Shown here: piece by piece, positions 33,591-62,530 of the stretch
Numbering within the stretch: position 1 is the stretch's first letter
How the letters are laid out: each line of letters begins with the position of its first letter
Made by a program: the position numbers and the translations under genes
Notes under the pieces: generated by a model
What the model was told of the DNA's origin: nothing
The model's input: only the letters and a program-made list of their open reading frames with translations
The model's database searches: none
Assembly (NCBI GenBank): GCA_016177405.1
Contig: JACOVG010000033.1
Location: forward strand, 41,486 to 105,485
Length of the DNA stretch: 64,000 nt
Direction of reading: 5' to 3'
DNA from: Candidatus Omnitrophota bacterium
Lineage (GTDB): Bacteria; Omnitrophota; Gorgyraeia; 1-14-0-20-64-10

Positions 33591-35234
33591 ATGACGGCAG
33601 CCCGCAGGCGAGAACTTCTTTCGCAGTGGATCGATAAGCTGGAAGGGCGCCTGAATCTGGATCCCCTGATCCAGGAGGCCTGCGGGGCCCTTCTTCGCCT
33701 AAGCGGCGCCGACCGCTGCTCCATCATGGTGCTGGACTCCTCCACCGAGGAGCTGTCCGTCCGATGGGCGGAAGGGATCCGGGTCAAGCCCTTTGGCAAG
33801 GTCAAGTTCAAGCTGGGGGAAGGAATGTGCGGCTGGGTCGCCCAAGCGCAGAAGCCCCTGTACAGCTTTGACGTCACCAAGGAAAACCGGTTTCTTCCCT
33901 CGGCCGCTTCCCGCCCGCGTCCGCTGAAGCCGGTCCGGGCCTTCTGCTGTCTGCCCTTGACCTCGGAGGGCCGCGCCATCGGCGTGGTGAATCTCTCCAC
34001 CTTCAAACCGAAGAGCCGGTTCAGCTCCTACGTCAAGCAGAGGCTGACCCAGGAGTTTTTGAGGAGGCTGGCCAAGGTCATCGCGCAGGCGGCCCTCCTG
34101 CGGGAAACCGAGGCGGCCTCGGAACGCTTCAGAAGGCTTCTTAAGAGCACCTCCGAGACGGTGGCCCAGGTCAGCCACGAGGTCCGCACCCCCTTGACCC
34201 TGATTACCGAAGGCGCGCAGCAGCTCTTGGACGGCATTCAAGGGCCGCTGGATCCCCGGCAAAAGGAGAGCCTCGAAAGGATCAAGGCGCAGACCGGGCG
34301 GATGCTTCGGCTGGTCAACGAGCTGTTGGACCTTTCCCGGATAGAGGCGGGCCGGCTCTCCCTTTACCGCAAACCCCTGGGGATGGGCGAATTGGTTCAA
34401 GAGGCGATTCACCGCTACGAACCGCTGATCGCTCCCCGCAAGCTCACCCTCCAGCTGGATTCGGTCCCGCCGGTCTATGGGGATCGCTCCCGCTTGACCC
34501 AGGTGGTGGAGAACCTCATCACCAATGCCGTGAAATTCACCTCCCCCAGCGGGGCCTTGGGGATCTCCTTGAAGGCCAAGGATCGTTGGGCCGAGCTGGG
34601 GGTGAGCGACACCGGGGCCGGAATGCCCAAGAGGGAGCAGGGGCGCCTTTTCGAGAAGTTCTTTCAAGGGAAGATGCCGGCCGGGTCGGTGGTGAAGGGA
34701 ACGGGACTGGGCTTGACGATCGTCAAGGAGATCGTTCAGCTTCATGCCGGGACGATCCGCGTCCGGTCTCGAGCCGGCGAAGGGACAACCTTCACGGTGA
34801 GCCTTCCACTCTACAGCCCGGCCTTCGCCCTGACCGAGGAGTTTGGCGCGATGCGCCGGCAGTCGGCCCGCGAGGGGACGGCCCTGTGCTGCCAGCTGTT
34901 TACGGCCCATTCCCGGACCCCGGTTTCCTGGCGGGAGGCGGCGGCTCTTTTCTCAAGGCACGTCTCCCGGGAGGACCGGGTTTTGGACCATCCCGAGGGA
35001 GGCCTGGTCATCCTTTCCGTTTCCGATCCCGCCGGGTTTGAGGCGATGCGCAAGCGCCTCGAGGGGGTGTTGAGCGCTCATCCGGAGATGATTCCCCCTT
35101 CCGGGATCGGCTGGGGATGGGCCTTGGTTCCGCAGGAGGCCGCCGACCTCGCCGAAGCCCTGCGCCTGGCCCGCGAGCGCGGCCAGGCGCGTTCGGAGAA
35201 TTTGGTCAAGAGCATCCGGGCCCTGGGAGATTAA
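33591..35234 (+). CDS. GAF-domain sensor histidine kinase with uncharacterised C-terminal extension
   Basis: N-terminal GAF domain. H-box SHEVRTPLT. HATPase G-boxes (DTGAGM, GTGLGLTIV). About 130 aa follow with no recognised domain. Confidence 0.8.
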   Translation: MTAARRRELLSQWIDKLEGRLNLDPLIQEACGALLRLSGADRCSIMVLDSSTEELSVRWAEGIRVKPFGKVKFKLGEGMCGWVAQAQKPLYSFDVTKENRFLPSAASRPRPLKPVRAFCCLPLTSEGRAIGVVNLSTFKPKSRFSSYVKQRLTQEFLRRLAKVIAQAALLRETEAASERFRRLLKSTSETVAQVSHEVRTPLTLITEGAQQLLDGIQGPLDPRQKESLERIKAQTGRMLRLVNELLDLSRIEAGRLSLYRKPLGMGELVQEAIHRYEPLIAPRKLTLQLDSVPPVYGDRSRLTQVVENLITNAVKFTSPSGALGISLKAKDRWAELGVSDTGAGMPKREQGRLFEKFFQGKMPAGSVVKGTGLGLTIVKEIVQLHAGTIRVRSRAGEGTTFTVSLPLYSPAFALTEEFGAMRRQSAREGTALCCQLFTAHSRTPVSWREAAALFSRHVSREDRVLDHPEGGLVILSVSDPAGFEAMRKRLEGVLSAHPEMIPPSGIGWGWALVPQEAADLAEALRLARERGQARSENLVKSIRALGD

Positions 35235-36845
35235 GTGGGAGCCATCAGGTCGTCCGAAGAGAAGCTGGTCGAGGAGGGGCTGATCACGGCCGAGCAGCTG
35301 AATCAGGCCCGCGCCGAGGCGGCGCGAAAGGGCCAATCGGTCCGGCAGGCCCTGGTGAGCTTGGGGGCGATCGATCCCAAGGCCCTGGCCCACTGGTTGA
35401 GCCGCGAGCTGAACCTTCCCCAGGTGGAGCTTAAGACCTATCTCGTGGATACCCAGGTGGTGGATCTGATTCCGGAGGCCTTGGCCAGGAAGCACCGGGT
35501 GATCCCCCTGTTCAAGGTGGGCTCCGCGCTGACCGTCGCGACCGCCGATCCGCTCAACCTCGCGGCCCTGGACGATCTGCGGTTGAAGAGCGGCTTGAAC
35601 GTGGAGCCGGTGGTCGCCACCGACGAGGAGATCGGCCAGGCCCTGGAGGAATATTACGGAGCCAAGGGCCGGTGGGACGAAATGGTCTCCCACCTGACCC
35701 AGGAGCGCCTGGGGATGGCGACGGGCGCCGAGCCGGAGCTCGCGAAGCTCAAAGGGCTCGTGGAGGAGCCGCCGATCGTGCGCCTGGTGAATCTCCTCCT
35801 GGCCGACGCGATCCACTGCCGCGCCTCCGACATCCACCTGGAGCCGGAGAGGGAGCTCTTGAAGGTCCGCTTCAGGGTGGACGGTCTCTTGAGGGAGTCG
35901 AGCGCCCTCCCCAAGCACCTGGAATCTGCCGTGATCTCCCGCATCAAGATCCTGGCCAGCCTCGACATTGCCGAGCGCCGCAAGCCGCAGGACGGCCGTT
36001 TCCGAGTTTCGATGGAGGGCCATGAGGTGGACCTGCGCGTCTCCGTGATGCCGGCGATCGACGGAGAAACGGTGGTTCTGCGCCTTCTGGACGCCTCCGG
36101 GCTTCAGTTGGACTTGAATCAGCTGGGCATGGAGCCCGAGCTTCTGGCCCGGTATCAGACTCTTCTCAAGCGCCCCTGGGGGATCCTCCTGGTCACGGGG
36201 CCCACAGGGTCGGGTAAGACCACCACCCTCTACGCCTCCCTGGCCACCCTCAATGCCGGCCAGCAGAACATCGTGACGATCGAGGATCCGGTCGAGTACC
36301 GGCTCAAGGGGATCCGGCAGATTCCGATCAACCCGGCGGTGGGCCTCACCTTTGCCTCGGGTTTGCGCTCCATCCTGCGCCAGGACCCGGATGTGATCCT
36401 GGTGGGGGAGATCCGCGACCGGGAGACGGCCGAGACCGCCGTCCAGGCGGCCCTCACCGGACACCTCGTTCTTTCCACCCTGCACACGAACGACGCCCCC
36501 ACCGCGATCACCCGCTTGATCGACATGGGGATGGAGCCGTTTCTGGTCGCTTCCAGCGTGATCGGCGTGGCGGCCCAGCGGCTGGTTCGGACGGTCTGCC
36601 CCGAGTGCAAGGCCCCCCGGAAGGGCTGCCGAAAATGCGGGAACACCGGCTACAAGGGAAGGATCGGAGTCTTTGAGCTGATGGTTATGAACGATGAGCT
36701 GGGCCGGCTGACCGTGGCCAAGGCCCCCACCGACCAGCTGCGCGCCTGCGCCTGCCGGAGCGGGATGCGCCTCCTGCGGGAGGATGGGATGTTGAGGGCC
36801 TCCTCCGGCCTCACCACCCCCGAAGAGGTCTTGAGGGTCACCTAA
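35235..36845 (+). CDS. Type IV filament assembly ATPase (GspE/PilB family)
   Basis: N-terminal GSPII_E N-domain. Walker A GPTGSGKTTT. Asp and His boxes. Tetracysteine motif CPECKAPRKGCRKCGNTGYKGR. Confidence 0.9.
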   Translation: MGAIRSSEEKLVEEGLITAEQLNQARAEAARKGQSVRQALVSLGAIDPKALAHWLSRELNLPQVELKTYLVDTQVVDLIPEALARKHRVIPLFKVGSALTVATADPLNLAALDDLRLKSGLNVEPVVATDEEIGQALEEYYGAKGRWDEMVSHLTQERLGMATGAEPELAKLKGLVEEPPIVRLVNLLLADAIHCRASDIHLEPERELLKVRFRVDGLLRESSALPKHLESAVISRIKILASLDIAERRKPQDGRFRVSMEGHEVDLRVSVMPAIDGETVVLRLLDASGLQLDLNQLGMEPELLARYQTLLKRPWGILLVTGPTGSGKTTTLYASLATLNAGQQNIVTIEDPVEYRLKGIRQIPINPAVGLTFASGLRSILRQDPDVILVGEIRDRETAETAVQAALTGHLVLSTLHTNDAPTAITRLIDMGMEPFLVASSVIGVAAQRLVRTVCPECKAPRKGCRKCGNTGYKGRIGVFELMVMNDELGRLTVAKAPTDQLRACACRSGMRLLREDGMLRASSGLTTPEEVLRVT

Positions 36846-36862: not shown

Positions 36863-38092
36863 ATGCCGACCTTCACCTATCAAGCCCGCGACGAATCGGG
36901 GCGGCTGGTCAAGGGAGCCCTGGAGGCGGACTCCCAGGCGGTTTTGGCCGAGCGGCTTCGGAAGATGGGCTATCTCGTCACCCGGATCGAAGAGGCGGCG
37001 CGGGGGATAGGGGGTTGGGCCGAGCTGCGCCTGGGGCGGGCCGTTTCCGGCGAGGATCTGCTCCTCACCTGTTTGCAGTTATCGGCCCTGGCCGGAGCCG
37101 GAGTCCCGCTCACCTCGAGCCTCAAGGCGGTTTCCTCCTCGCGCTCCAAGGAGAACGCCCTGCGGCAGGCCCTGGAGGGGGTGACCCATGAGGTTGAATC
37201 GGGATCCCGATTCTCGCAGGCCCTGGCCTGCCGCCGCGAAATCTTCCCGGAGCTGATGGTGAGCCTGGTGGAGGTGGGAGAGGCCACCGGAAAACTGGAC
37301 CTTGTCCTCTCGCGCTTCGCCCGTTTCCTCGAGAAGGATCTGGCCTTGAGGCGGGAGATCCAGGGGGCGCTGACGTATCCCCTGCTGCTTCTGGCCGCTT
37401 CCAGTCTCCTCATCCTCTTTGTGGTCTCCTTTGTGGTGCCGCAGTTTGCCCTGGTTTTTTTGAAGGCCGGCATCCCCCTGCCGGCCCCCACCCGGTTTCT
37501 GCAGTGGGCCGCCCACCTCATCCAAAGCTACTGGTGGGCCCTGGGTTTTCTGGCGGTCTTGGGGACAGCCGCCGCGGCCTTCGCGTACCGCAAGGCGCCC
37601 ATCCGTCTTAGGGTGGACCGGGCGCTGCTCACGCTTCCGGCGGCGGGGCCGCTTCTGTTGGCGTCGGCGGTCGCCCGCTTCTGCCGGACCTTGGCCACCC
37701 TGGCGGCCAGCGGTGTGGCCATCTTAACAGCCCTTCGGGTGGCCCGGCGCGTGGTGGGCAATCGGGCCCTGGTCCAAGAGGTTGAGCGGGTGGGCCAGGC
37801 GGTCGAACGGGGAGAGAGGATCGCCGCCGCCTTGAGCGTCGGCCGGGTCTTCTCGGCCGACGCGATCCAGATGATCCGCGTGGGGGAGGAGTCGGGAAGG
37901 CTTGATGAGATGCTGGAAAAGGTGGCCGACTTCTATGAACTTAAGGTAAGCTATACCCTAAAGCAAATGACGACTCTTCTGGAACCGGCCCTGCTGGTGG
38001 TCATGGGAGGGGTGACGGCTTTCATCATGGCTTCGCTCCTGCTTCCAATGTTCGACATGGTCAAGGTCCTTCAGCATGGAGGGTTGAGATGA
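36863..38092 (+). CDS. Type IV filament platform protein (GspF/PilC family)
   Basis: 409 aa with two T2SSF repeats and 3 TM segments. Confidence 0.9.
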   Translation: MPTFTYQARDESGRLVKGALEADSQAVLAERLRKMGYLVTRIEEAARGIGGWAELRLGRAVSGEDLLLTCLQLSALAGAGVPLTSSLKAVSSSRSKENALRQALEGVTHEVESGSRFSQALACRREIFPELMVSLVEVGEATGKLDLVLSRFARFLEKDLALRREIQGALTYPLLLLAASSLLILFVVSFVVPQFALVFLKAGIPLPAPTRFLQWAAHLIQSYWWALGFLAVLGTAAAAFAYRKAPIRLRVDRALLTLPAAGPLLLASAVARFCRTLATLAASGVAILTALRVARRVVGNRALVQEVERVGQAVERGERIAAALSVGRVFSADAIQMIRVGEESGRLDEMLEKVADFYELKVSYTLKQMTTLLEPALLVVMGGVTAFIMASLLLPMFDMVKVLQHGGLR

Positions 38093-38553
38093 AGCGGTCA
38101 AGGGGGTTCACGCTCATCGAGCTGATCATCGTGATCGCGGTGATCGCGATCTTGATCGGAATCGCCCTGCCGCGCCTTCGGGGAATGATCGATGAAGGCA
38201 ACACGGCCAAGGCCGGGGCGGAACTGCGGGCCCTCCAGGCGGCGGTGGAATCGTACTACATCCACAACTCCAAAACCTATCCGGCCGACGGCTCCGTCAC
38301 CTGGCAAACCGCCCTGACCGCCTCCACCACCAAACCCAAACTGATCGGCTCGGCCCTCACAGACCCCTTTTCGACCTCCAGCGCCCAGTACTCGTACGAC
38401 AAGTCGTCCAACGGCCTCTACTACGTGATCTGGTCGGTGGGGCCGGACAACACCGCCGACATCACCGCGATCGGCACCGATGGGACCATCTCCGGCGGCC
38501 CCGATGACGATATCTATGTCTCCAACGGCACCTCCGGCACCGGCGGTTTCTAA
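38089..38553 (+). CDS. Major pseudopilin/pilin with prepilin-type N-terminal cleavage/methylation domain
   Basis: MKRSRGFTLIELIIVIAVIAILIGIALP, with Gly-Phe at -1/+1 and Glu at +5. Confidence 0.8.
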   Translation: MKRSRGFTLIELIIVIAVIAILIGIALPRLRGMIDEGNTAKAGAELRALQAAVESYYIHNSKTYPADGSVTWQTALTASTTKPKLIGSALTDPFSTSSAQYSYDKSSNGLYYVIWSVGPDNTADITAIGTDGTISGGPDDDIYVSNGTSGTGGF

Positions 38554-39511
38554 AAGAACCCCGCGGTTCTGGCTCGGAATCCTTTTGGCCTTCTGCACCG
38601 GGGTGGGGCTGTCCCTCTTCGCCTTTTTTGTCCGCGGCGGGGCTGAATCCTGGGCCGTTTTCGCTCTGGGGGTGGCCTCCTCCTCTTTTCTCATCGCCTA
38701 CCTTCTGGTGGATTTCCGCAAGACGGCCGAGGTGAAGAAGCAGGTGGTTCAGCGGACCCTGGAGCTCCAGGAGGCAAACCGGCGGCTGAAGGAGCTCTCC
38801 AGGCTCAAGGACGAATTCATCGCCTCCGTCTCCCACGAGCTGCGCACCCCCTTGACCGTCATCCAAGAAGGAGTGGTTCAGGTTTTGGAGGGAATTTGCG
38901 GGCCCGCCAGCCCCGCCCAACGGCAGTCTCTCTCGATCGCCGTGAGGAACATCGAGCGCTTAAGGCGCCTGATCGAGGATCTCCTGGACATCTCCAAGAT
39001 TGAAACCGGCAGGATGGTCCTGAATCTGGAGACCTTTGATCTGCGGGAGGTTGTTCGGGAGGCGGGCCGGAGCTTCCTTCCGAGGATTCAGGGCAAGGGG
39101 CTTGAGCTGAAGATCCATCTTCCTGAAGGCAAGGTGGCTCTCTACGCGGATCGGGACAGGCTCGCCCAGGTTTTCTCCAACCTGCTGGACAACGCCCTGA
39201 AGTTCACGCGGAAGGGATTCATCGAGATCTGTGTTTTGGAGGAGAGTCGCCGCCAGATTGCCTGCAGGGTCTCGGACACCGGCTTGGGCCTTGCCCCGGA
39301 GTTTCTTTCAAAGCTCTTCCATAAATTTCAGCAGGCCCCCGGCGAGGCCGCCAACGGCGTGAAGGGAACCGGTCTGGGGCTGGCCATCTCCAAGGGAATC
39401 GTGGAGCTCCACGACGGCAGGATTTGGGCCGAGAGCCAACCGGGTCAGGGAACCCGCTTCACCTTCACCCTGCCGGTCAAAACCTTCCCCTCGCAGGCCC
39501 ATGCGGCCTAA
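38516..39511 (+). CDS. Membrane sensor histidine kinase embedded in the pilin gene run
   Basis: Two N-terminal TM segments. H-box SHELRTPLT. HATPase motifs (DNALKFT, DTGLGL, GTGLGLAISK). The start is uncertain: the ATG at 38516 overlaps the pilin gene by 38 nt, and alternative TTG/GTG starts lie near 38590. Confidence 0.7.
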   Translation: MSPTAPPAPAVSKRTPRFWLGILLAFCTGVGLSLFAFFVRGGAESWAVFALGVASSSFLIAYLLVDFRKTAEVKKQVVQRTLELQEANRRLKELSRLKDEFIASVSHELRTPLTVIQEGVVQVLEGICGPASPAQRQSLSIAVRNIERLRRLIEDLLDISKIETGRMVLNLETFDLREVVREAGRSFLPRIQGKGLELKIHLPEGKVALYADRDRLAQVFSNLLDNALKFTRKGFIEICVLEESRRQIACRVSDTGLGLAPEFLSKLFHKFQQAPGEAANGVKGTGLGLAISKGIVELHDGRIWAESQPGQGTRFTFTLPVKTFPSQAHAA

Positions 39512-39884
39512 AGCCCTCCCGGGATTCACCCTGCTGGAGGTGATGATCGCCGTGGTCCTGCTGACCGGCGCCGTCGCGGCGTCCGCCCTTGTTTTCAGCC
39601 GGGCCATTTTTATGACCGCCGACACCGAAACCCTGACGCAGGCGTCGGCCCTCGCCCAGGAGAAGCTGGAGTCTTTGCGGGGAGGTTCTTTCGCCGCCAT
39701 CGCCAGCGAACCCAAGGCCGCCGTCCCGGGCTGGAGCGGTTTTTCGCGGGAGGTCGAGGTCAGCCAGCCTGCCGGAACCAACAGCGATTTCAAACAGATC
39801 GGGGTGACCGTTTACTGGGACACCGTGGATGGGGAGCTTTCGACGGATCTCACCACCTATGTGGCGAATGTGTCGAACAATTGA
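39501..39884 (+). CDS. Minor pseudopilin, GspI/PilV-like
   Basis: Prepilin motif GFTLLEVMIAVVLL. 127 aa. Confidence 0.6.
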   Translation: MRPKALPGFTLLEVMIAVVLLTGAVAASALVFSRAIFMTADTETLTQASALAQEKLESLRGGSFAAIASEPKAAVPGWSGFSREVEVSQPAGTNSDFKQIGVTVYWDTVDGELSTDLTTYVANVSNN

Positions 39885-39885
39885 C

Positions 39886-40455
39886 GTGCCGAAAGCACGT
39901 CATCGCGAGTCCCGCCAACGAACTTTGGCGGGACGTGGCGATCTCGGACTGACCCTGATTGAACTTCTCATCGCCCTGCTTCTGGCGGGAGTTCTCATGA
40001 CGGCGGCAGCCATGTCGTTGAATCCCATCCTGCTGGCCTGGTCCAGCCAAATGGACCGGATAGAGCTCAACCGCCAGCTTCAGCATGGCCTGGAACGGGC
40101 CGTCCGGGATCTGCGAGGCGCGACAAATCTGGCCAACGACACCAACGACGCCATCCGTTACACCTTAAGGGAAAGCGGCGTGAGCAACTCCTACATCCTT
40201 TATCTTTACCACGCCGACGACACCTGGCCGCCCGCCTTCAACCAGACGGCCTACCAACTGCGTAAGGCCAGCCTGACCGGAGGGATCAACGGCACCTTCA
40301 CCTACGGCGGCGGGGACCTCCTGATGCGGGATGTTCAGCCGCCGGCCGCCTCGGACCTGTCGGTGAGCGGTTCGTTGGCGACGTTGGATCTCACCTTGGT
40401 TCGCAAGACGGACGAAACCTTCCGGCTGGTGGAGAAGGTCAAGAGGCGGAACTAA
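39886..40455 (+). CDS. Minor pseudopilin, GspJ/PilW-like
   Basis: Prepilin-like GLTLIELLIALLLAG. The start is uncertain: GTG at 39886, or TTG at 39925 giving the short leader MAGRGDLG. Confidence 0.55.
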   Translation: MPKARHRESRQRTLAGRGDLGLTLIELLIALLLAGVLMTAAAMSLNPILLAWSSQMDRIELNRQLQHGLERAVRDLRGATNLANDTNDAIRYTLRESGVSNSYILYLYHADDTWPPAFNQTAYQLRKASLTGGINGTFTYGGGDLLMRDVQPPAASDLSVSGSLATLDLTLVRKTDETFRLVEKVKRRN

Positions 40456-40456
40456 G

Positions 40457-41281
40457 ATGCGGGGCTCTGTGATGATCATGGCGCTGGCGCTCACGATTCT
40501 CCTGGTGGGCCTGGTGGGCGGCTATCTCTTTACCGTGGGAGTCTTGATCACGAACAGCGGCTGGGAGGAAACCGACGCCAAGACCTTGTGGCTGGCGGAG
40601 GCCGGTTTGCAAAAAGGGATCTGGAACCTGAAAACCCCCGCCGGAAGCGGCGGGCAAGGAGAGAACTGGACGACGGCAGGCACGACAGAAAACCTCGGTG
40701 CCGGGAGTTACACAATGGTTGTCACAAGATATGACTTTGCGCTGGGCACAAACGGAGGAACTGCCTCCGCCTCCTCACAATCAGCACAAGGACAGCGCGC
40801 TTCAAAAGCGATTGATGGGGATGATGAGAGTCGATGGGAATCGGATAACGTTCCAAGCTCGGCCGCGCCGGAACATATTGTCATCAGTTTTCCCTACCCG
40901 CTCACTTTGAACAAGGTTCGTTTTGTAGCGCACTCTTCGAATCAGCGGCCGGTGGATTACACTTGGGGAGTCTCGACGGACGGCTCGGCTTACGCAGTTG
41001 TCGTCACCGTAACAGGAAATGCCGCCACGGACCGCACCGACACGTTCGGTGCGCAGTCAAATGTCAACCATTTGAAACTCATAGTTACGGCGATCGGGGG
41101 CGGCCAAAAAGGAGTCGGTATTTCCAAGCTCGAGGCGATTGGGAGTAAAATCACCTCAATCGGCACCTTGACCGCCACCGGGCAGACGTACACCCGAACC
41201 ATTTCGCAAACGGTGGCGGCGGACGACGGCTCGCCGCAGAATCAAGTGGCCTATTACGAACCGGACTGGGCGGAGGAATGA
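40457..41281 (+). CDS. GspK/PilX-like tip pseudopilin carrying a discoidin (F5/8 type C)-like domain
   Basis: N-terminal TM MRGSVMIMALALTILLVGLVGGYL lacks Glu+5, as in GspK. Residues ~95-235 (ASKAIDGDDESRWESD ... VRFVAHSS ... LKLIVTAIGG) resemble the discoidin repeats of the 17673 gene. Confidence 0.55.
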   Translation: MRGSVMIMALALTILLVGLVGGYLFTVGVLITNSGWEETDAKTLWLAEAGLQKGIWNLKTPAGSGGQGENWTTAGTTENLGAGSYTMVVTRYDFALGTNGGTASASSQSAQGQRASKAIDGDDESRWESDNVPSSAAPEHIVISFPYPLTLNKVRFVAHSSNQRPVDYTWGVSTDGSAYAVVVTVTGNAATDRTDTFGAQSNVNHLKLIVTAIGGGQKGVGISKLEAIGSKITSIGTLTATGQTYTRTISQTVAADDGSPQNQVAYYEPDWAEE

Positions 41282-42864
41282 AAACCAAGCGAATCCTGGC
41301 GATCGAGCTGGGCGGCACGAGCTTCAAGCTGGCGGCGGCCGAAGTGACCGACGGCAAACCGACCCTCACCCGGGTCCGCCGCCTTCCCCTGGCAGCCCCA
41401 ACCGACGAGGCTTCGCGCCGGAAGACCCTCGAGGAGCTCCTTTCCGGGATCGCGCGGGACGCGAAAACCAACGTTGTCGCTCTCGTGGACGATCCCTTCG
41501 CCTTCGTGGGGCCTCTCCTGGTTCCGCCCATGCCCTCCGGCGAGCTGGCCGGAGCGGTCCATTTTGAGCTTCAGCGCGGCCTCCCCATCCCGCCGGAGGA
41601 AGCGGTCGTGGATTATGAAATCTCCGGAGGGGTGGAGAGCCAGGGGGTCAAGAAGCTCAAGCTTCTTGTCGGCGCCCTCCCCCAGCAGACGGTCAACAGC
41701 CAGCTTGCCTTCTTGGCGCGGGCCGGCCTAAAGCCCAGCCGGCTTATTCCCAGGGCGCAGGCGACGGCCGCCTGGTCCAAAGAGGGGGCGGATCCTTCCG
41801 CCGCCAGCCGCGGCATCCTTCGCGTCGGAGGGACCTCTTCGGAGTTTCTCGTGACAAGGGGCGGCCAGATCCTTTTTGTCAGGAAGATCCCGGTCTCCGG
41901 GGGAGATTTCACGCGAGGGATGACGGCCGTTCTGATGACGGCCGCGGGCCAGGTGGGTTTGACCGAAGCCGAGGCCGAGACGGTCAAGCGGACGGTCGGC
42001 ATACCCTCACCCGAATCCAGCAATCCGGCGACCCAGGGAATTCCGGCTTCCCAGATTCTGGCCATGCTGCGGGGCAGTCTCGATCGCCTGGCCGTGGAGG
42101 TGGAGCGCTCGATCGCCTTCTATGGAGAGTCTCAAGGCGGCGGATCGAGCTTGGGAGAGCTTATCCTCGCCGGAGGCGGGGCGCACCTGAAAGGGTTGGA
42201 CCAGTGGCTGGCGAAGAGACTTGGGATTCCGGTGACCGCGCCCGACCCTCTGGCCGGCAGGGCCGTCGCCGCCGGGGCTGTTGAGGAAAATGTGGCAACC
42301 GCGCCCTTGAGCCTGGCGGCGGTGCTGGGGGCTGTGGAGCTTTCCGCGGCGGGCGCGGGGCTTAATCTCTTGCCCCGCCAGATCAGGGAGGCCGCCCAGA
42401 CTCAAGCCAGGCGTTCGGTCCTGGCGGGATCGATCGGCGCGGCGGCGGCCGTCCTGCTTGTGGTGAAGGCTGGGATGGGGATTTACCAGGGGGCGCTTGA
42501 GAAAGAGCTGGCCGCCCTCCGGGTCGAACAGTCCGCGGTGATGTCCCAGCACGCCGCGGCCCAGACGACCTTAAGCGCCTACGAGCTTCTTCGAACCCAG
42601 CCCCCCCTGGAGGAGATCTTCAAGGAGTTGGGCCATGCCGTTCCGGCCCACGCGTACCTGACCCATTTGACCTGGCAGGAGGGTAAGTGGGCCCTTCAGG
42701 GCAAGGTTCGTGAGGTCACCCGAACGGCCGACGCGGTGCTCAACGATTTCCTGCGGGCCCTCTCCGAGGGACCTTTTACCGAGGTGCGGTTGATCGGGAG
42801 CCGGCAGGTGGAGGGGAGCATTCCCAGGGAGTCCGAGTTTGAAGTGAGCTGTCTCTTAAAGTGA
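41278..42864 (+). CDS. PilM-PilN fusion (GspL-like inner-membrane assembly protein)
   Basis: N-terminal actin-like PilM region (ILAIELGGTSFKLA ... GGGAHLKGL). A TM segment and coiled-coil PilN-like region follow (LNLLPRQIREAAQ...LAGSIGAAAAVLLVV). Confidence 0.65.
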   Translation: MKTKRILAIELGGTSFKLAAAEVTDGKPTLTRVRRLPLAAPTDEASRRKTLEELLSGIARDAKTNVVALVDDPFAFVGPLLVPPMPSGELAGAVHFELQRGLPIPPEEAVVDYEISGGVESQGVKKLKLLVGALPQQTVNSQLAFLARAGLKPSRLIPRAQATAAWSKEGADPSAASRGILRVGGTSSEFLVTRGGQILFVRKIPVSGGDFTRGMTAVLMTAAGQVGLTEAEAETVKRTVGIPSPESSNPATQGIPASQILAMLRGSLDRLAVEVERSIAFYGESQGGGSSLGELILAGGGAHLKGLDQWLAKRLGIPVTAPDPLAGRAVAAGAVEENVATAPLSLAAVLGAVELSAAGAGLNLLPRQIREAAQTQARRSVLAGSIGAAAAVLLVVKAGMGIYQGALEKELAALRVEQSAVMSQHAAAQTTLSAYELLRTQPPLEEIFKELGHAVPAHAYLTHLTWQEGKWALQGKVREVTRTADAVLNDFLRALSEGPFTEVRLIGSRQVEGSIPRESEFEVSCLLK

Positions 42865-43442
42865 AGATGACCCCGCCCCTTCTACGCGCTCTGAAGAAGG
42901 TCCAAGGGATGGCCGGGCCGCTTCTTGAGGCGGTCAGGAAAAAACCCAAATGGCTTGGGCCCCTGGCGGCTCTCGGGCTGATCGTTATCCTCTGGTCCCT
43001 CTACGCCGTCCCCTTGGGCCGGATCCGAAAGCTTCAAGCCGGCCTCCTGCCGTTGAAGGAGCAGGTCGCGCGGGCTCAAGAGGTGATCCAAAGGGCGCGC
43101 CAGGTGAATCTGGCCGCTTTGCCGGCGGCCGACGCCTTGCCCCAGGTGCTGGAGGAGCTCAACGCCTTGGCGCGCCAGCACGAGGTTCAATTGGTCAAGA
43201 CAGCCCCCCAGCCGACACGCCCGGCGGAATCCCGGGGGCTGGTGATCCTGCCGCTTGAGCTTCAGGTGGAGGCGGAGTACCGGAATCTCGGGGAATTCTT
43301 GGGGGCTCTGCGAAGGGCGCCGGGCCTGGGCGTGCCGCTGACGCGCCGGATTGCCCTCGGCAGAGAAGAGAGGCTGCTACCGCGGCTTACGGCGACGCTG
43401 ACGATCGACCTCATTTTAAGCGAGGCGCCCGGTGGCTCCTAA
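42861..43442 (+). CDS. PilO/GspM-like assembly protein
   Basis: 193 aa. Single TM (LGPLAALGLIVILWSLYAV), then a coiled-coil and a periplasmic domain. Confidence 0.55.
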   Translation: MKMTPPLLRALKKVQGMAGPLLEAVRKKPKWLGPLAALGLIVILWSLYAVPLGRIRKLQAGLLPLKEQVARAQEVIQRARQVNLAALPAADALPQVLEELNALARQHEVQLVKTAPQPTRPAESRGLVILPLELQVEAEYRNLGEFLGALRRAPGLGVPLTRRIALGREERLLPRLTATLTIDLILSEAPGGS

Positions 43443-43869
43443 AAAAGAGAAGGTGGTCCTGGCCGTCTTGGCGGCGCTGGCCGCGGTGGTCTGGGTGAGG
43501 GGTCTCACCGCCCGTCCGGCAAGGCCCCAACGATCCGCGGCGGCCCCCTCGCTCTCCGGCGCGGCCGTCAGGGGCGCGGGCCAGGGGGCCCAGAAGATGA
43601 CCTCCCGCTTCACCGAATGGGCCGACAGCCCCTTCCTGGTGGAGCGCCGCGGCCGCCCCGATACGAAAGCGGTGCAAGTTCCTGATTCGGGGGGAAGGGC
43701 TCTTGCCGTAAGCGGAATCCTTTGGGATCCCAAGGGTTCTTCGGCCATCGTCAACGGACTGCTGGTCGGCGTGGGGGACGAGGTGGGCGGCTGGAAGGTT
43801 CTGGAGATCCAGAGGGATAAGGTGGTCCTGACCGACGGGGCCAACCTCGAAACCCTCACCGTGGAATAG
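43432..43869 (+). CDS. PilP/GspC-like protein
   Basis: N-terminal TM. The C-terminal beta-domain (AVSGILWDPKGSSAIVNGLLVGVGDEVGGWKVLEIQRDKVVL) is like the PilP C-terminus or the GspC HR domain. GTG start. Confidence 0.5.
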   Translation: MAPKKEKVVLAVLAALAAVVWVRGLTARPARPQRSAAAPSLSGAAVRGAGQGAQKMTSRFTEWADSPFLVERRGRPDTKAVQVPDSGGRALAVSGILWDPKGSSAIVNGLLVGVGDEVGGWKVLEIQRDKVVLTDGANLETLTVE

Positions 43870-43924: not shown

Positions 43925-45136
43925 ATGCGGGAACGGGTGATCTTGCTGGTGGACATGGACGCCTTCTTCGCCTCCTGCGAGCAGGCGGCCGACCCGCGGC
44001 TTGCCGGCAAGCCGGTCATCGTCTGCGGCAATTTCAAAAAGCGCTCGGTGGTGGCCGCCTGCTCCTATGAAGCCAAGGCCCACGGCGTTGGCAACGGAAT
44101 GCCGGTCCCCGAAGCGCTGGCCCTCTGTCCTGGGGCGGTGCTGGTGGCGGGAAATCCGGACAGGTACACCCGCGTCGCCCGCCTGATCTTTGAGGGGCTG
44201 ATCCGCTACACGCCCCTTATCGAGATCGTCTCCATCGACGAGGCCTTCCTGGATGTGACCGACACCCACCCTCGCTTTGGATCGCCGCAGGCCATCGCGG
44301 TGGAAATTCAACGCCGCGTGGAGATGGAGTTTCACCTCTCCTGCACCGTGGGGATCGGGCCCAACAAACTGCTGGCCAAGCTGGCCGCCAAGCTGAACAA
44401 GCCGCGCGGCATCGGTCGGATCGGCCGCGAGGAGGTTCCCGACCTTTTAAAAAACCTTCCGGCGGATAAGGTCAACGGCATCGGGCCGGCCATCACCAGA
44501 ACCCTTCTTTCGATGGGGATCGCCACCTTGGGAGAGCTGGCCCAGCTTCCCGTGTCAAGGCTGACCAGCCGCTTCGGCTTTTACGGGGAGCTTCTTTTCC
44601 GGATGGCCCGCGGGATCGATGAGAGCCCTGTGCTGCCGATCGATTCTCCGGAGGTAATCAAATCCATGGGCCATGCCTATACCCTGGATCAGGATACCCG
44701 GGATCCGGCGATCGTCCAGGGGACGTTGCTCAAACTCTCCGAGAAGGTGGGCCGCCGCTTGAGAGCCGCCGGTTTGCGCGGCAAGACGGTGTGGGTTGTT
44801 TTACGTTTTTCGGATTTCTCCGCGGTCAGCCGACAGAAGACCTTGGGCGAGGGCCTTTGCGAGGGCCTTGCCATCTACCGGGCCGCGGGCCGCTTGCTTG
44901 CCGAGATCTGGTCTGCCGGCGGCAGACCGGTCAGGCTGGTGGGGGTGGGGGTGTCGCATCTTCTGGCGGCCCCCGAGAACGTGGATCTCTGGGAGGACCG
45001 CCAGCGCCAGAGGCGCCTGACGGCGAGCTTGGACCGGATCAACGATTGCTTCGGAGAGGAGACGGCCTTCCGGGCGGCGACCCTGGTTCCCTTTACCGAG
45101 AAGACCCGCGGCTATTTTGGCCACCGTTGGTTTTAG
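43925..45136 (+). CDS. dinB: DNA polymerase IV (DinB)
   Basis: ILLVDMDAFFASCEQ Y-family catalytic motif. 403 aa. Confidence 0.9.
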   Translation: MRERVILLVDMDAFFASCEQAADPRLAGKPVIVCGNFKKRSVVAACSYEAKAHGVGNGMPVPEALALCPGAVLVAGNPDRYTRVARLIFEGLIRYTPLIEIVSIDEAFLDVTDTHPRFGSPQAIAVEIQRRVEMEFHLSCTVGIGPNKLLAKLAAKLNKPRGIGRIGREEVPDLLKNLPADKVNGIGPAITRTLLSMGIATLGELAQLPVSRLTSRFGFYGELLFRMARGIDESPVLPIDSPEVIKSMGHAYTLDQDTRDPAIVQGTLLKLSEKVGRRLRAAGLRGKTVWVVLRFSDFSAVSRQKTLGEGLCEGLAIYRAAGRLLAEIWSAGGRPVRLVGVGVSHLLAAPENVDLWEDRQRQRRLTASLDRINDCFGEETAFRAATLVPFTEKTRGYFGHRWF

Positions 45137-45209
45137 CCGCCTCCGGAGCATCCTTTTTCCTTTCCAACAGGAAAGGGGGTGTGCTATCTATAAGGAGGGC
45201 ACCACACCC

Positions 45210-46916
45210 ATGCGCAGACCTCTTGTTCTCCAAACGAGCCTATTTCTGCTGTGCGGGCTCCTCGCGGGAGTTGCCTGGGCGGCCCAGCGGGACATCGAGG
45301 TGGGCTCCGAGGAGGAGCGGCTAAGAAGGCCTCGAATCCTGGAAGTGCCAGAGCGGGCCGTCATCCCCGTCGAAATCCCTCCGGAGGAGCCACTCCCCGC
45401 CACCGCGGCAGACCTGCCACCTGTCCTGGTAGCCCAGGTTGTGATCGACGGAGCGACCGTCCTGCCGGAAAAGGAGGCCCGCCGGCTGACCGCCCCTGTG
45501 GAAGGCCGGACCGTTTCCCTCAAAGAGCTCCAAGAAACCACCCGCACCATCACCCGTTGGTATCGAGGCAAGGGGTACGTCACCTCCCGCGCCTTGGTTC
45601 CTGCCCAGACGGTTCAGAAGGGGAGCGTTCGCCTGCGGGTGGTGGAAGGGAAGGTGGGCCTGGTGAAGATAGAGGGAAACCGCCATTTCTCCACCGAGCT
45701 GCTTCAACGGTACCTCCGGATCCATTCCGGGGAGGTCTTCAACCTCTTCCGGGTTGAGGAAGGACTGGTCCAGCTCAATGCCCATCCGGATCGCAAAGCC
45801 AAGCTGGTCCTTACCCCTGCCAAGGAGCCGGAGACCTCGGACCTCATCCTGCAGGTGACCGACCAAGGACCCTTCCACGCCAACTACGGCGTGGATACCC
45901 TGGGAACCAAAGAGACCGGTTTGATCCGGCAGAGCTTAGGTCTGGCCCACGGAAATCTGACCGGCCATGACGACCAGCTCTTTGTGCGTGGCATCGTGAC
46001 GGAGTTTGCCGGCCTCTGGGGTGGAGCCATGAGCTACCTCCGTCCTCTGACCCCGAGAGGAGCTGCCGCCAGCCTGGAGGTGAGCGGCGTCAAGTCTTCC
46101 GTGGGAGGGGACCTGAAGAATCTGATCGCCAAGGGGAATGCCCTCACCATCAGTCCCAGCCTGATCCTGCCGTGGGTGAAGCGAGCGGCCTTCGAGCTGG
46201 AGGCGACCGCCGGTTTTGACTTCAAAAGGGTTCGGACCTTCCGTGACGAAAGGAGCAACTCCAAGGACGACCTCCGGGTTTTTCGGGTGGGGACCAACCT
46301 CCTTTCGCAAGATGTCCGGGGCAGGAGTCTCATCGTTCAGGAACTCCGAGTAGGACTTCCCAACATCCTCGGCGGTTCCCATGGGGAAGAGGTAGCCGCC
46401 AGCCGGGCTAAGGCCGGTGGTTCCTTCATCCGATGGGTGGCGAATCTGGTGAGGATTCACCGGGGGCCTTGGGGTACCACCCTTGTCTTCCGGGGCTCTG
46501 GCCAACTGACGACCGACCGGCTGGTCCCGGCGGAACAGTTCCGACTGGGCGGTTTTGACACGGTGCGCGGCTACCCCGAGGGAGAATTCCTCGCCGACGC
46601 GGGCTACCAAGCCACGGTGGAGGTGCGCGCCCCGACGGAGAAGTTTCTTCCGGCTTGGGGGGGCCAAAGCTCCCCGTGGGGACGCCTGCGCCGCTCCCTG
46701 CTGGTGGTCGGTTTCTGGGATTTTGCCGAGGGGTTTGTGCGGGACCCAGCCGCCGGGGAGGATGCCGACATGCGCCTGGCCGGGGCCGGGTGTGGCCTGC
46801 GTCTGCGCCCCACCTCGGAATCGGTCCTGCAGGCCGATTTTGGCTGGGCCTTTGGCGACCGGGATGCCGAGAAGGACCGCCCCCGAATCCACCTGATCTG
46901 CCGGATTGGATTCTAA
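45210..46916 (+). CDS. Two-partner secretion outer-membrane transporter (TpsB; ShlB/FhaC/HecB family)
   Basis: Signal peptide MRRPLVLQTSLFLLCGLLAGVAWA. POTRA region (ITRWYRGKGYVTSRA...VVEGKVGLVKIEGNRHF). VRGY loop-6 motif (FDTVRGYPEGEF). C-terminal aromatic residue. Internal Met32 chosen as the start. Confidence 0.8.
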   Translation: MRRPLVLQTSLFLLCGLLAGVAWAAQRDIEVGSEEERLRRPRILEVPERAVIPVEIPPEEPLPATAADLPPVLVAQVVIDGATVLPEKEARRLTAPVEGRTVSLKELQETTRTITRWYRGKGYVTSRALVPAQTVQKGSVRLRVVEGKVGLVKIEGNRHFSTELLQRYLRIHSGEVFNLFRVEEGLVQLNAHPDRKAKLVLTPAKEPETSDLILQVTDQGPFHANYGVDTLGTKETGLIRQSLGLAHGNLTGHDDQLFVRGIVTEFAGLWGGAMSYLRPLTPRGAAASLEVSGVKSSVGGDLKNLIAKGNALTISPSLILPWVKRAAFELEATAGFDFKRVRTFRDERSNSKDDLRVFRVGTNLLSQDVRGRSLIVQELRVGLPNILGGSHGEEVAASRAKAGGSFIRWVANLVRIHRGPWGTTLVFRGSGQLTTDRLVPAEQFRLGGFDTVRGYPEGEFLADAGYQATVEVRAPTEKFLPAWGGQSSPWGRLRRSLLVVGFWDFAEGFVRDPAAGEDADMRLAGAGCGLRLRPTSESVLQADFGWAFGDRDAEKDRPRIHLICRIGF

Positions 46917-47013: not shown

Positions 47014-50000
47014 GTGCGTAACAGCTCCCCGAACGCGTGGCGCCGCCATCTTCTAGGCGCGGCGGCGCTGATCTTCCTGTGGGGCGCAGGGATCGATCCT
47101 CCCCCACTCCTCGCCCTGCCTTCCGGTACCGTCGTGGAGGACGGCTCCGTCGAAATGGAGCTGGCTTCCGACGCGAATCTTCACGTGCACGTCCTTTCCG
47201 AGAAGGCGATCCTGGGGCACTCAAGCTTTGACATTACCGCCCCCGAGACGGTCGAGATCCATCACCATCTGACAACTCCCTCCGCGGCCCTCCTCTCCCG
47301 CGTCTACGGCGGGGCCGCCTCCGAGATCGCCGGCACCCTGCTTTCCAATGGTCTATTCGCTCTGGTCAACCCGGCCGGCATCCACATCGCCGATTCGGCC
47401 ACGATCGACGCGGCCAAAGGCTTTATCGCCTCAACCCTCAACATCTCCAACGCCAACTTCCTGGCTGGAAACCTTGTTTTCGAATCCTCTCCAGGCCAAC
47501 CGTCGGGGGCCGTGGTCAACGAAGGCCGAATCCTCACCTACCCCGGAGAGCTGGTGGCCCTGCTGGGTGGAGCGGTGGAGAACAAGGGCTCGATTCTGGC
47601 GGAACTGGGCTCCATCGTTCTGGCTGCCGGCGAGAAGCTCACCCTTTCCTTCGACCGGCAGGGCTGGTTCGGCGTCACGGTGGAGGAGCCCCTTTCGGAG
47701 ATCGCCACCGGACTGGACGGCAAGCCGGTTGCCGCAGCGGTGGAGCAATCGGGCACCCTCTCCGCCGCAGGCGGCCATATCCTGGTCAAGGCAGAGGCGC
47801 TCCCTGGGCTCTTTGACAAGCTGGTCAGCCTTCCGGCCGGTTTGATCGAAGCCGCCAGTGTTGTCTACCGCAACGGCCAGGTGGAGCTGGTCGGCAAGGG
47901 GGGAACCCTCTCCCACTTTGGCGCGATCCGGGCCGACGGCACCGTGGAGGCTCCACGAGCTGGCGGCATCCTGGTTGAAGCGACCCGGATCCTCCAGGGA
48001 GGCACCATCAGCGCCAATGCAGGTGAGGGGGGTGCGGCCGGCAGCATCCAGTTGATCAGCGAGGAGACTACCAGTCTCTTGGCCGGCAGCCGAATAGAGG
48101 CCAGGGCCTCCGGGGCGGTTGGAGAGGGAGGGTCCATTCGGATAACTTCCACTTTGCCAAAGGTGAGCGGTTCCCTGTTCGTTGGGCCCGGCTCGGTCGT
48201 TGATGTGAGCGGCGGCTCCGAGGCGGGAGATGCCGGTTTTATTGAGTTAAGCGCACGTAGTGTGGAACTTTGGGGCGGCCGGCTGGCGGCGCGGGCGGCC
48301 GACGGCTCCTCGGGAGGGCGCCTCCTGATCGATCCCCTGGACCTCACCTTCGATACCTCCACCCAGGATGCTCCCACCAACGAGGCCAGCGGCACGCCGG
48401 ACATCGCCTTCGATGACCCGGACACCGTCACCTCCACCACAGTGCAGATCGCCGACATCACCGGCTTTGCCGAGGCCTTCTTCCAGGCCGTCCGGGACAT
48501 TATTGTGAACGCCGCCCTGACGATGGGCAACAACAACGATCTGCGTCTGGAGGCCGGCCGGGACATTAATCTCAACGCCAACGTTCGGGTCCAGGGGGGC
48601 AGCGGCCACATGACCCTGATCGCCGATGCCGACTTCTCTGGCGACGGGGGAGCCGCCTCAGACGGGGACGGGACGATCAACCAGGCGGCGGGGGTGACGA
48701 TCCAGTCGGGTGACGGGGACGTTGTCCTCCAGACGGCCGAAGACTTCACCGTCCGGACCATCGCGGGCGGCAACGGCGGGACCGTCTCGATTACCTCCAC
48801 CGATGGGAATATTCTGGATGATGGCGACGACTCCACCCGGATCACCACCGACGAGCTTACCCTCACCGCCAACGCCTCCGGCAAGGGAGCAGGCACCTCG
48901 GATGAGCTGGACACCAACCTCAATGAGCTGACGTTCGACGTCGGCTCCGGCGGGGCCAAGGTCCGGGATTCCGGCTCCTTCACCCTGAAGGCCCCCACCG
49001 TGGCCTCCGGCGGCTCCCTGGACCTCCGATCCGATAACGATCTGACGATTGATAACAATGCGGCCGTGACGGTAAGCGGGTCAGGTACCCTTACCTTGAT
49101 CGCCGATGCCGACGCCAGCGGGGCCGGCGGCCTCACCATGAACAGCGGCTCCTCCCTCGTAAGCGGCAGCGGCAAGATCACCCTGGACGCTGGCGACAAC
49201 GTGGATCTTCGGACCGTCACCTCAGACAGCGGCGACATCGAGGCTTCCTCCGATGATGATGTCAGGGTCCGCAATAATATGACGACCGCCGGCGCCGGCA
49301 AGATCACCCTCACCGCCGACAGCAATGGAAACGGCAGCGGCACCTTTATCCAGGATAGCGGGGTTACCGTCGCAACCGGCGGCGGCGACATCGCCATCAG
49401 CGGCGCCGACGACATGACCCTGCGCACGATCAACGCCGGCGCCGGCGATCTCACGATCACCGCCGTCGGCAGCAACATCAACGATGACAACAGCAACACC
49501 ACGAAGCTCACGGCCGACAAGCTCACCCTGACCGGCAACCGGATTGGGAACACGGGCAACAACCAGATCGACACGAGCGTCAACGAGATTGACGTCACCG
49601 CTGGCGGCGACCTCCTCTTGACCAATGACAAAACCCTGCTGGTCACCAACGCCACGGCCAACGGCAGTGGCAGCGACATCACGCTGGTCACTACAAGCGG
49701 TGATCTGCTGATCAATCTCGTTTCTGCGACAGGGGACCTGGTGACGCTCACGGCGGCGGGGGCCATCACCGAATCCGGGTCGGATGCCGGGTCGGACCTT
49801 CTGGCCAGTCAGGCAGCCCTTTCGGCCGCCAGCGGGATCGGGACCTCGGGCGACTCCCTGGAGACCACCCTGACCACCCTGGCGGCCCAGACCACCTCCT
49901 CCGGAGGGGTTTTCATTTCCAATACAGGAACCCTCTCCCTGGGAACGGTCGGTTCCTTGACCGGGGTGACGGCCGCCGGCGGCGGGATCAGAATCACGGC

Positions 50001-56903: not shown

Positions 56904-57184
56904 CCCACCCTCCCGTCTTAAAGAGATGGCGACAATACACCGTCACCAAAGAGTTCGACTCAAAAGAGAACGCGCTACCTTGAAACCTGCCCTGGGAATC
57001 TTGCGGACAACCGCTCGTGGGGGGTAAGCTTCCCTCGGGGAGCTTGAGGAATGAAGCCAACCTGTTTGATCAACCGCGGGGACCTCATCGGCCTAATTTC
57101 CTTAGACCAAGGAGGGCCTCCGGAACACCCCCCCGCCACAAGATCTTGAGGGCAGTTGCCTTTGTACCGCAACTGCTCGTGTTT

Positions 57185-57212
57185 TGTCAAGATCAAAATT
57201 CCCGGGTATAAT
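57185..57212 (+). promoter_or_regulatory. Sigma-70 promoter TTGTCA-N16-TATAAT for the DUF1802 gene
   Basis: Perfect TATAAT at 57207-57212, 8 nt before the ATG. The complementary strand carries TTGACA-N18-TACAAA facing nrdJ. Confidence 0.55.
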
Positions 57213-57220
57213 GATCCCTG

Positions 57221-62422: not shown

Positions 62423-62458
62423 TCGTAGAAAACTTAGATTGAAACAAAAGATTTTACC

Positions 62459-62487: not shown

Positions 62488-62500
62488 TCTTGTGCAAAAA

Positions 62501-62528: not shown

Positions 62529-62530
62529 AC

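Follow-up and report, generated by a model that had tools for sequence, protein, structure and literature searches.

Does an Omnitrophota bacterium build a type IV filament whose tip is a lectin? This question is raised by a single gene, located on the forward strand at positions 40457-41281 of the 64,000-nucleotide stretch of Omnitrophota DNA that we analyzed (hereafter the window), which the first-pass annotation had read as encoding a GspK-like tip pseudopilin fused to a discoidin-like lectin domain. We found that the product of this gene (hereafter the K-slot protein, from the place of the gene in its operon) is a PilX-like, K-class minor pilin that is GspK-like in position and in logic without being a member of the GspK family, and that it carries a discoidin domain inside its pilin fold. 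We are highly confident of this structural and positional assignment.

The open reading frame (ORF) runs from ATG to stop and encodes 274 residues; it starts one nucleotide past the stop codon of the preceding pilin gene and its own stop codon overlaps the ATG of the next gene. The protein corresponds to a GenBank "discoidin domain-containing protein" from a "Candidatus Omnitrophica bacterium" metagenome-assembled genome, to which it is identical except for the annotated start: the NCBI/GenBank gene model (P0001, 269 residues) begins at Met6 and drops "MRGSV", including a conserved glycine. The ATG at 40457 is the better start. With this start, the N-terminus reads MRG/SVMIMALALTILLVGLVGG, where the slash marks the putative cleavage site. 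Gly3 is invariant in a 16-sequence profile and found in every complete N-terminus of an alignment of 27 orthologues, none of which has a glutamate at position +5 after this leader glycine (0/27). The major pilin and the minor pilins I and J of the same operon all have Glu+5 (Table 1). The K-slot protein thus displays a Gly(-1) followed by a hydrophobic stretch, yet does not conform to the N_methyl motif (PF07963 / IPR012902) as defined, and Pfam scans gave no N_methyl match to it, as is expected for K-type subunits, which are invariably devoid of Glu+5 and take the most apical position in their filaments (PMC12918778). Metagenomes contain more than 200 relatives of full length, with identities of 50-75%.

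The discoidin assignment is solid and goes far beyond chance. The Pfam model F5_F8_type_C (PF00754) matched residues 103-214 of the K-slot protein with an E-value of 4e-11 (43.6 bits, for a cut-off of 28.2), the F5_F8_type_C_2 model was also above its cut-off, and Pfam further matched the NedA-like galactose-binding subfamily; PF00754 was matched by all 27 orthologues (best E 5.7e-17). When the profile of these 27 orthologues was compared with solved CBM32 modules, E-values went down to 3e-11. An AlphaFold2 model of the K-slot protein computed on the orthologue alignment had a mean predicted local distance difference test score (pLDDT) of 88 and a predicted template-modelling score (pTM) of 0.76. 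Using Foldseek, this model was matched to CBM32 structures at E 1e-10, with target-normalised template-modelling (TM) scores of 0.82-0.89 and root-mean-square deviations (rmsd) of 2.1-2.8 Å, the best superpositions reaching TM scores of 0.87-0.89 with an rmsd of 2.1-2.5 Å over ~140 columns. The matched modules include the chitosan-binding DD1 and DD2 of Paenibacillus and those of GH89 and NanJ from Clostridium perfringens; the CBM32 of C. perfringens GH84C also matches, with a TM score of ~0.75 and an rmsd of 3.8-3.9 Å. CBM32 modules such as Paenibacillus DD1 (4ZXE) and those of C. perfringens GH84C and GH89 have their fold and family in common with the discoidin domain described here, at 20-26% identity, but the modules compared are appended to glycoside hydrolases, whereas that of the K-slot protein sits in a pilin with no catalytic domain. 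The first-pass annotation had recognized this domain from its motifs, and model, profile and structure comparisons all bear it out.

How the domain is placed in the protein became visible when residues 95-232 were cut from 16 orthologues and a profile of the remaining, discoidin-less sequence was used for searching. This profile found proteins of 135-160 residues that span both halves contiguously, at 28-43% identity and with a coverage of up to 99%. Aligned with these insert-less relatives, the discoidin domain of the K-slot protein is a clean insertion of ~135 residues between the strands "SYTMVVTRY" and "KITSIGT", at the turn of a β-hairpin. The term "fused", used in the first-pass annotation, can therefore stand for the presence of a discoidin domain but not for its attachment, since it is inserted into a hairpin and not appended. 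In the AlphaFold2 model, a helix covering residues 2-59 leads into a β-sheet with predicted strands at 73-80 and 83-93 before the insertion, and with C-terminal strands that extend to residue 240 and then cover 243-256 and 264-273. The C-terminal half of the helix holds a conserved, PilX_N-like "LWLAEAGLQKxIWNL" motif, and the protein ends with a conserved D-W-x-E strand, of which W271 is invariant in the 27-sequence alignment. Residues 60-94 are the best conserved part of the protein, with a mean major-residue frequency of 0.84, compared to 0.68 for the more variable discoidin domain, where insertions and deletions fall in loops; judging from these sequences, the variability of the loops is consistent with a diversifying ligand specificity.

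To which pilin family does the scaffold belong? The discoidin-less profile matched proteins bearing PilX_N (PF14341) at E 1.8e-9, and several of the relatives of 135-160 residues carry the Joint Genome Institute name "Tfp pilus assembly protein PilX" or a Pfam PilX_N match. PilX_N was matched by 9 of the 27 orthologues (best E 3.8e-4) and by 36 of 139 nearest cluster representatives (described below; best E 1.6e-9). With the full profile, five variants found in the same gene slot (two insert-less, three with a β-helix) and one close relative from a locus outside those examined scored 13-20 bits, for a gathering score of 25.5 bits. Pfam searches with the N-terminal 101 residues or the C-terminal 46 residues of the K-slot protein on their own gave nothing useful at E <= 10. 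We also considered membership in the GspK family (T2SSK, PF03934) and rejected it: T2SSK was matched in none of the Pfam scans and did not appear among the families that the 27 orthologues match at E <= 10, and an hhalign comparison of the pilin-module profile with GspK of E. coli K-12 gave a probability of 2% over 24 aligned columns that correspond to the hydrophobic N-terminus only. The designation GspK-like is thus right for the slot and for the absence of Glu+5 and wrong for the family, which is PilX_N-like, and we keep GspK as a positional and functional analogy only. Like the K-slot protein, GspK (known from the GspI-J-K complex of enterotoxigenic E. coli, PDB 3CI0) is encoded after I and J and before a GspL-like gene, lacks Glu+5 and has a leader with Gly(-1). 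Unlike GspK, the K-slot protein has no T2SSK domain and no detected sequence relation to it beyond the hydrophobic N-terminus, its inserted domain is a discoidin β-sandwich instead of a helical α-domain, and its operon, in contrast to GspK's type II secretion system (T2SS), has no secretin or GspH.

The position of the gene was then compared between genomes. In the window, the gene order is ATPase, platform protein, major pilin, a histidine kinase, minor pilins I and J, the K-slot gene, PilMN, PilO and a GspC-like gene (Table 1); the order I-J-K of minor pilins is almost invariant across type IV pili and T2SS (PMC12918778). A conservation scan limited to one genome per species identified 25 loci in which a match covered the whole or the greater part of the discoidin form. 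The window's gene order is kept in each of them, and in all 26 loci compared that have a discoidin form matched to this extent, up to the limits of the contigs and with small gaps in four (tblastn), and neither a secretin (GspD) nor GspH is part of the operon in any related locus examined. The first-pass claim of a tip-class minor (pseudo)pilin without Glu+5 in the GspK/PilX slot agrees with this I-J-K order as it does with the 27 orthologues. Taxonomic labels, which we took as recorded, are mostly Omnitrophota/Omnitrophica, seven being automatic "uncultured Planctomycetia/Pirellulales" labels, with one each for Planctomycetota, Candidatus Scalindua and "bacterium". The family is thereby found in at least 25 species-level genomes, and it counts more than 200 sequence clusters; Velamenicoccus, known from Omnitrophota enrichments, has a member too. 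For the ATPase, the scores were 607 bits (PilB model) and 583 bits (GspE model), both below cut-off. The ORF of minor pilin J is open from 39829, and its "MWRM" start was inferred from the orthologue in locus L001 ("MWRTY", with the same 26-nucleotide overlap).

Two signalling features accompany this operon. The histidine kinase gene keeps its place between the major and minor pilin genes in the closest loci (L001, L006, L007, L009, L010, L011, L018 and L025), and a GAF-histidine kinase is encoded directly upstream of the ATPase, at 33591-35234. In the related Omnitrophota operon of L001 (8741-9493), and equally in L002, the PilV/GspI-like minor pilin is a single ORF of 250 residues with a complete response-regulator receiver (REC) domain before the cleavage site ("...KYRPKRG/FTLVEVMIAV"), while the leader of the I gene in the window has only 8 residues. 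Since prepilin leaders are cytoplasmic, this REC domain would be a cleavable "leader" of ~130 residues. To our knowledge, no such arrangement of a REC domain ahead of a prepilin cleavage site has been described.

The discoidin domain is not the only module found on this scaffold. Two of the insert-less relatives could be traced to their contigs, and both are encoded in the K slot of the same operon in other Omnitrophota. In five further Omnitrophota loci (L026-L030), ~1.1 kb separate the start of the K-slot gene from PilMN, and the three K-slot genes that were translated (L026, L027 and L028) encode proteins of 362-379 residues with the same N-terminal module and a final "DWNEIVPAT" strand. 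These contain a region of ~220 residues made of "INGxI" repeats, with weak ice-binding-like and FapA β-solenoid matches, which is inserted elsewhere than the discoidin domain, namely just before the last strand. A hidden Markov model search with the profile of the insert-less relatives then returned 1,438 cluster representatives at E <= 1e-10, of which the 139 nearest new ones were analyzed. By size, 32 of them have at most 175 residues (no insert), one has 176-259, 12 have 260-315 (the size of the discoidin form), 85 have 316-460 and nine have more than 460, up to 1,210. Pfam modules in these 139 are DUF7305 (20), Laminin_G_3, a ConA-like lectin (17), F5/8 type C (13) and a bactofilin-like β-helix (13); DUF7305 or bactofilin-like models match the module in those relatives of the size class of L026-L028 that were scanned, these three apart. 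A W-x-[EDQ] motif lies within the last 15 residues of 113 of the 139 representatives, in all size classes, and Glu+5 was present in only one of the 127 relatives that were scored for it. The three longest relatives examined (996, 1,042 and 1,210 residues) contain lectin-like repeats, and two of them end with "GSWQE" and "GSWKEL"; Laminin_G_3 repeats are what the largest relatives, of up to 1,210 residues, carry. Altogether, the K-slot protein is a predicted tip pilin that serves as a scaffold on which binding modules can be exchanged, and no fewer than four kinds of module occur on it.

With the domains identified, the insertion point located, the gene slot determined and conservation across the phylum established, what may the protein do? 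We consider as fairly probable, if clearly less assured than the assignment itself, a complete adhesion mechanism in which it is the apical minor pilin of K type (PilK/PilX/GspK class) and in which the discoidin-bearing filament tip attaches the cell through a glycan. The protein would be anchored in the inner membrane by its hydrophobic α1 helix, with its leader probably cut off behind Gly3. Lacking Glu+5, it could only be the first and topmost subunit; together with I and J, encoded upstream, it would prime filament assembly and then stay at the tip. K subunits need a terminal β-strand, which comes in trans from PilY1/PilC, or in cis in GspK of T2SS, in Com systems and in CpaL of Tad pili (PMC12918778). 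By analogy, the C-terminal D-W-x-E strand is a candidate for an in-cis "C-β" licensing strand that probably completes the β-sheet of the protein itself, which would explain why no PilY1/PilC-type adhesin belongs to the operon, in which we found no PilY1-like gene. The discoidin domain in the β2-β3 hairpin would sit at the distal end of the pilin head, as the helix runs up, β1 down and β2 up before the insertion, so that the insert leaves from the distal end. In discoidin domains, both termini lie at the end opposite to the ligand loops, and hence the loops would face away from the cell. Acting as a lectin, the filament tip would then attach the cell to a glycan on the surface of another cell or to polymeric material. 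A glycan is the predicted ligand because the closest relatives of the domain are bacterial CBM32 modules that bind galactose, N-acetylgalactosamine (GalNAc), N-acetyllactosamine (LacNAc) or chitosan, and carbohydrate binding by the K-slot protein is proposed on that analogy.

Several observations weigh against this mechanism and give room to other explanations. The operon has a GspG-like major subunit and a T2SS-like gene order, and no secretin, GspH, prepilin peptidase or retraction ATPase (PilT) was found among the scanned ORFs of the window (outside 15-46 kb, those of at least 200 residues), which leaves an extended surface pilus a putative structure; the machine is assignable to neither T2SS nor type IVa pili (T4aP). 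One may instead imagine a T2SS-type machine with a short periplasmic pseudopilus, where the discoidin domain replaces the α-domain of GspK and makes contact with cargo, such as glycosylated exoproteins or a polysaccharide, with the channel in the outer membrane or with the cell wall. This would fit with a major subunit that matches T2SSG, a platform protein that scores best with the GspF model, an operon order that mirrors the gsp operons (compared with E. coli gspC-O), including a PilM-PilN fusion that resembles GspL, the lack of PilT among the scanned ORFs, and the fact that GspK likewise has a domain inserted in its pilin β-sheet. The PilB model, however, gives the ATPase a slightly higher score than does the GspE model, and the operon is devoid of secretin and GspH genes at every locus. 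Moreover, the ConA-like lectin repeats of relatives of up to 1,210 residues and the β-helix modules found in the same slot fit poorly with a periplasmic piston and are typical of exposed adhesins, and Omnitrophota clusters of such a kind were classed as T4aP in published surveys (PMC10066038). We thus regard a T2SS-type pseudopilus as unlikely.

Two further explanations concern the ligand and the filament itself. The distal orientation of the discoidin domain was deduced from strand topology, and the ligand loops vary across the family, so that no conserved sugar site can be named from these sequences. Discoidin domains can bind lipids or proteins too. The protein may then be located at the tip and bind a membrane phospholipid, or else a host- or prey-cell protein, in keeping with the lipid- and protein-binding members of the F5/8 type C superfamily. 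Membrane phospholipid is bound, for instance, by the C domains of coagulation factors V and VIII. The lack of conservation of the putative ligand loops would suit such a ligand, as would the proposal that Omnitrophota attach to other cells (PMC10066038). All the closest sequence and structure matches are nevertheless CBM32 modules from bacteria that bind carbohydrates (chitosan, galactose, LacNAc, GalNAc), and the Pfam match to the NedA-like galactose-binding subfamily points in the same direction, making a non-carbohydrate ligand rather improbable. As for the filament, the K-slot protein does not match PilX_N even at E <= 10 and falls below the thresholds of both PilX_N and N_methyl, its pilin assignment being made through orthologues, transitive profile matches and gene position. 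The fold support for the pilin module is also weak: for the model of an insert-less relative (pLDDT 83), the three best PDB matches in Foldseek were all to ComZ, a modular competence pilin, but at E 0.04 and 20% identity. A protein with no significant N_methyl or PilX_N match, which GenBank names merely for its discoidin domain, might accordingly work outside any filament as a membrane-anchored periplasmic or surface lectin that is pilin-like only at its N-terminus. We find this very hard to reconcile with a slot that is fixed between the I/J and PilMN genes at every locus examined, with a conserved Gly(-1) that is followed by a hydrophobic helix, with insert-less homologues that are small PilX-like pilins, and with the conservation of the C-terminal strand.

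A glycan-binding filament tip can be compared with several known systems. PilX/PilK of T4aP (PF14341) share with the family an N-terminal helix with an A-E-A-G motif and the K slot in the I-J-K order, with an apical role that is predicted from the absent Glu+5; PilX_N matches across the family range from sub-threshold to significant. Classical PilX/PilK proteins have no lectin domain and receive their terminal β-strand from a separate PilY1/PilC adhesin, whereas the present operon encodes no PilY1, and a single polypeptide contains both binding module and terminal strand. Modular pilins have been described in Streptococcus sanguinis, where PilC carries a ConA-like lectin module that gives glycan binding and PilB a vWA module, both proposed to be at the filament tip (PMC8179133, PMC9934059). 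With a pilin module and an F5/8 type C domain, the K-slot protein falls under the definition of a modular pilin (PMC8179133), although its domain is inserted in the hairpin of a K-type pilin and those of S. sanguinis are appended C-terminally through a linker to canonical IPR012902 pilins. The survey in that study listed one architecture combining a pilin with F5/8C (IPR012902-IPR000421) and two combining PilY1 with F5/8C, and the study also mentions the inserted α-domain of GspK and the inserted β-solenoid of ComZ (PMC8179133). As the survey searched by the IPR012902 motif, absent here, it would have missed the family that we describe. ComZ of Thermus thermophilus (PDB 6QVI) is likewise a pilin with a large domain, a β-solenoid, inserted in the pilin fold, but the inserted folds and the ligands differ, ComZ binding DNA. 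Finally, CpaL/TadG of Tad pili has a pilin-like domain at its N-terminus, which is followed by a large central region and by a last strand that provides complementation in cis (PMC12918778), and the β-helix and Laminin_G variants of the family have the same layout. In the literature, we found no description of a K-type pilin bearing a discoidin/CBM32 domain or of this Omnitrophota family, the one pilin-F5/8C architecture in the survey of PMC8179133 being its sole trace. The family is a further case of the modular pilin idea and not a new kind of system or principle, with three particular features: a hairpin within the capping subunit holds the module, PilY1 is missing, and modules are visibly exchanged in the slot.

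Table 1. Parts of the K-slot protein, genes of its operon and same-slot variants with a β-helix-like module. Coordinates are those of the window, except in the last row, where they are those of each locus; a slash marks the prepilin cleavage site.
Feature	Coordinates	Strand	Details
Leader "MRG" of the K-slot protein	40457..40465	+	short, class-III-type, ends in conserved Gly(-1); putative prepilin-peptidase site
α1 helix	40466..40633	+	residues 4-59; N-terminal half hydrophobic, no Glu at +5
α-β loop and pilin strands β1-β2	40634..40738	+	residues 60-94, "GSGGQGENWTTAGTTENLGAGSYTMVVTRYDF"
Discoidin / F5/8 type C (CBM32-like) β-sandwich	40739..41152	+	residues ~95-232, within the β2-β3 hairpin
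C-terminal pilin strands and stop	41153..41281	+	residues 233-274, "TSIGT..TRTISQTV..QVAYYEPDWAEE"
Assembly ATPase, PilB/GspE class, MshEN N-terminal domain	35235..36845	+	Pfam T2SSE E 9e-132, MshEN
Platform protein GspF/PilC	36863..38092	+	Pfam T2SSF E 1e-54; TIGR02120 GspF E 8e-101
Major (pseudo)pilin, GspG-like	38089..38553	+	G/FTLIE; N_methyl and T2SSG above Pfam cut-offs
Histidine kinase between major and minor pilin genes	38630..39511	+	ORF open from 38480; HisKA and HATPase_c
Minor pilin I, PilV/GspI-like	39501..39884	+	G/FTLLE; TIGR02523 PilV E 4.9e-8 (below cut-off); N_methyl
Minor pilin J, PilW/GspJ slot	39859..40455	+	G/LTLIE; N_methyl E 3e-5
PilM-PilN fusion, GspL-like architecture	41278..42864	+	PilM_2 E 1e-13; PilN E 7.5e-5
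PilO/GspM-like protein	42861..43442	+	PilO E 1.9e-7
Small GspC/PilP-like protein	43432..43869	+	weak T2SSC E 3.7e-4 and GspC_delta E 1e-4, both below cut-offs; slot conserved
β-helix-like K-slot minor pilins	L026 9896-11035; L027 4688-5806; L028 9959-11047; also L029, L030		

The first-pass annotation had further proposed that the discoidin domain has the same motif pattern as five repeats of a giant protein encoded at 17673-22112, and that the two would share a ligand. This giant protein has 1,479 residues (its ORF is open from 17559), with four Pfam-significant F5/8C stretches (E 8e-41), a fifth weak one and two VWA domains. The motif pattern is real, as the discoidin profile of the K-slot family falls on five periodic positions of the giant protein (59, 226, 399, 576 and 834; whole-protein E 1.6e-4), but these matches are weak and lie mostly over DG....W, a generic motif of the superfamily, and BLASTP between the two proteins gave at best E 0.015 over 31 residues. 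The repeats of the giant protein also match Sad1_UNC, and they thus belong to a different discoidin subfamily. The two genes lie 18 kb apart, separated by thiolase, aminotransferase-like, TPR and desaturase-like genes, and in none of 30 related loci did tblastn detect the giant protein within 10 kb on either side of the operon. A shared ligand and a meaningful co-localisation of the two proteins were therefore rejected. Discoidin domains were already known in large Omnitrophota proteins (PMC10066038). Immediately before the giant protein gene, at 15280-17667, lies a gene for a transglutaminase-core protein (795 residues), and this pair looks like a surface or adhesion module of its own, unrelated to the pilus operon.

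Other genes of the window deserve mention. Directly after the pilus operon comes a two-partner secretion (TPS) pair, made of a ShlB/FhaC-type transporter (45117-46916; POTRA_2 and ShlB) and a protein of 1,892 residues (47014-52692) that has no Pfam match at E <= 0.001 but whose N-terminus matches the filamentous-haemagglutinin TPS domain TIGR01901 above cut-off (E 2.3e-10). With this pair, a second adhesin system would be linked to the pilus. In L001/L002, L007 and L025, too, the operon is followed by a ShlB-type transporter. We considered whether the ShlB-type protein may be a substitute for the secretin and rejected it, since a TPS transporter fits better: the next gene has a TPS domain, and the transporter is found in the closest relatives only. 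A gene for a DinB-type DNA polymerase IV lies between the GspC-like and ShlB genes (43925-45136); it was not detected in any related locus, where the ShlB gene, if present, directly follows the operon. On the reverse strand at 11946-13598, beside an AcrB-type pump (8859-11942), a single ORF of 550 residues combines an N-terminal MarR-type helix-turn-helix with two OEP/TolC repeats, an implausible fusion that may stem from an artefact of frame or assembly, or from two genes having been read together. Finally, three ORFs have no Pfam match at E <= 0.001, namely 5665-8025 (786 residues, with no NCBIfam match either), 56975-57661 (228 residues) and 62454-63497 (347 residues).

What does a discoidin-bearing capping subunit mean for these bacteria? 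The K-slot protein extends the modular pilin idea to capping subunits without Glu+5, which motif-based surveys miss, it indicates that a tip pilin of K type can accommodate a binding domain within its fold and not just at its end, and the family fits with the recent model of in-cis β-strand licensing. One may speculate further, and for the moment we see this as a possibility more doubtful than probable, that the K slot is a cassette site whose interchangeable tip modules set the partner or prey cell, or the polymer, to which a cell attaches, that the discoidin pilus is the primary host-recognition organelle, that module swapping drives host range in these ultra-small, possibly host-dependent bacteria and that W-x-E is a universal in-cis licensing signal which allows any module to be carried. 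The finding is not surprising in principle and will mostly interest specialists in type IV filaments and in the biology of candidate phyla. Since Omnitrophota are uncultured, mostly ultra-small and suspected to live attached to other cells, the K-slot protein is a concrete candidate for their means of attachment.

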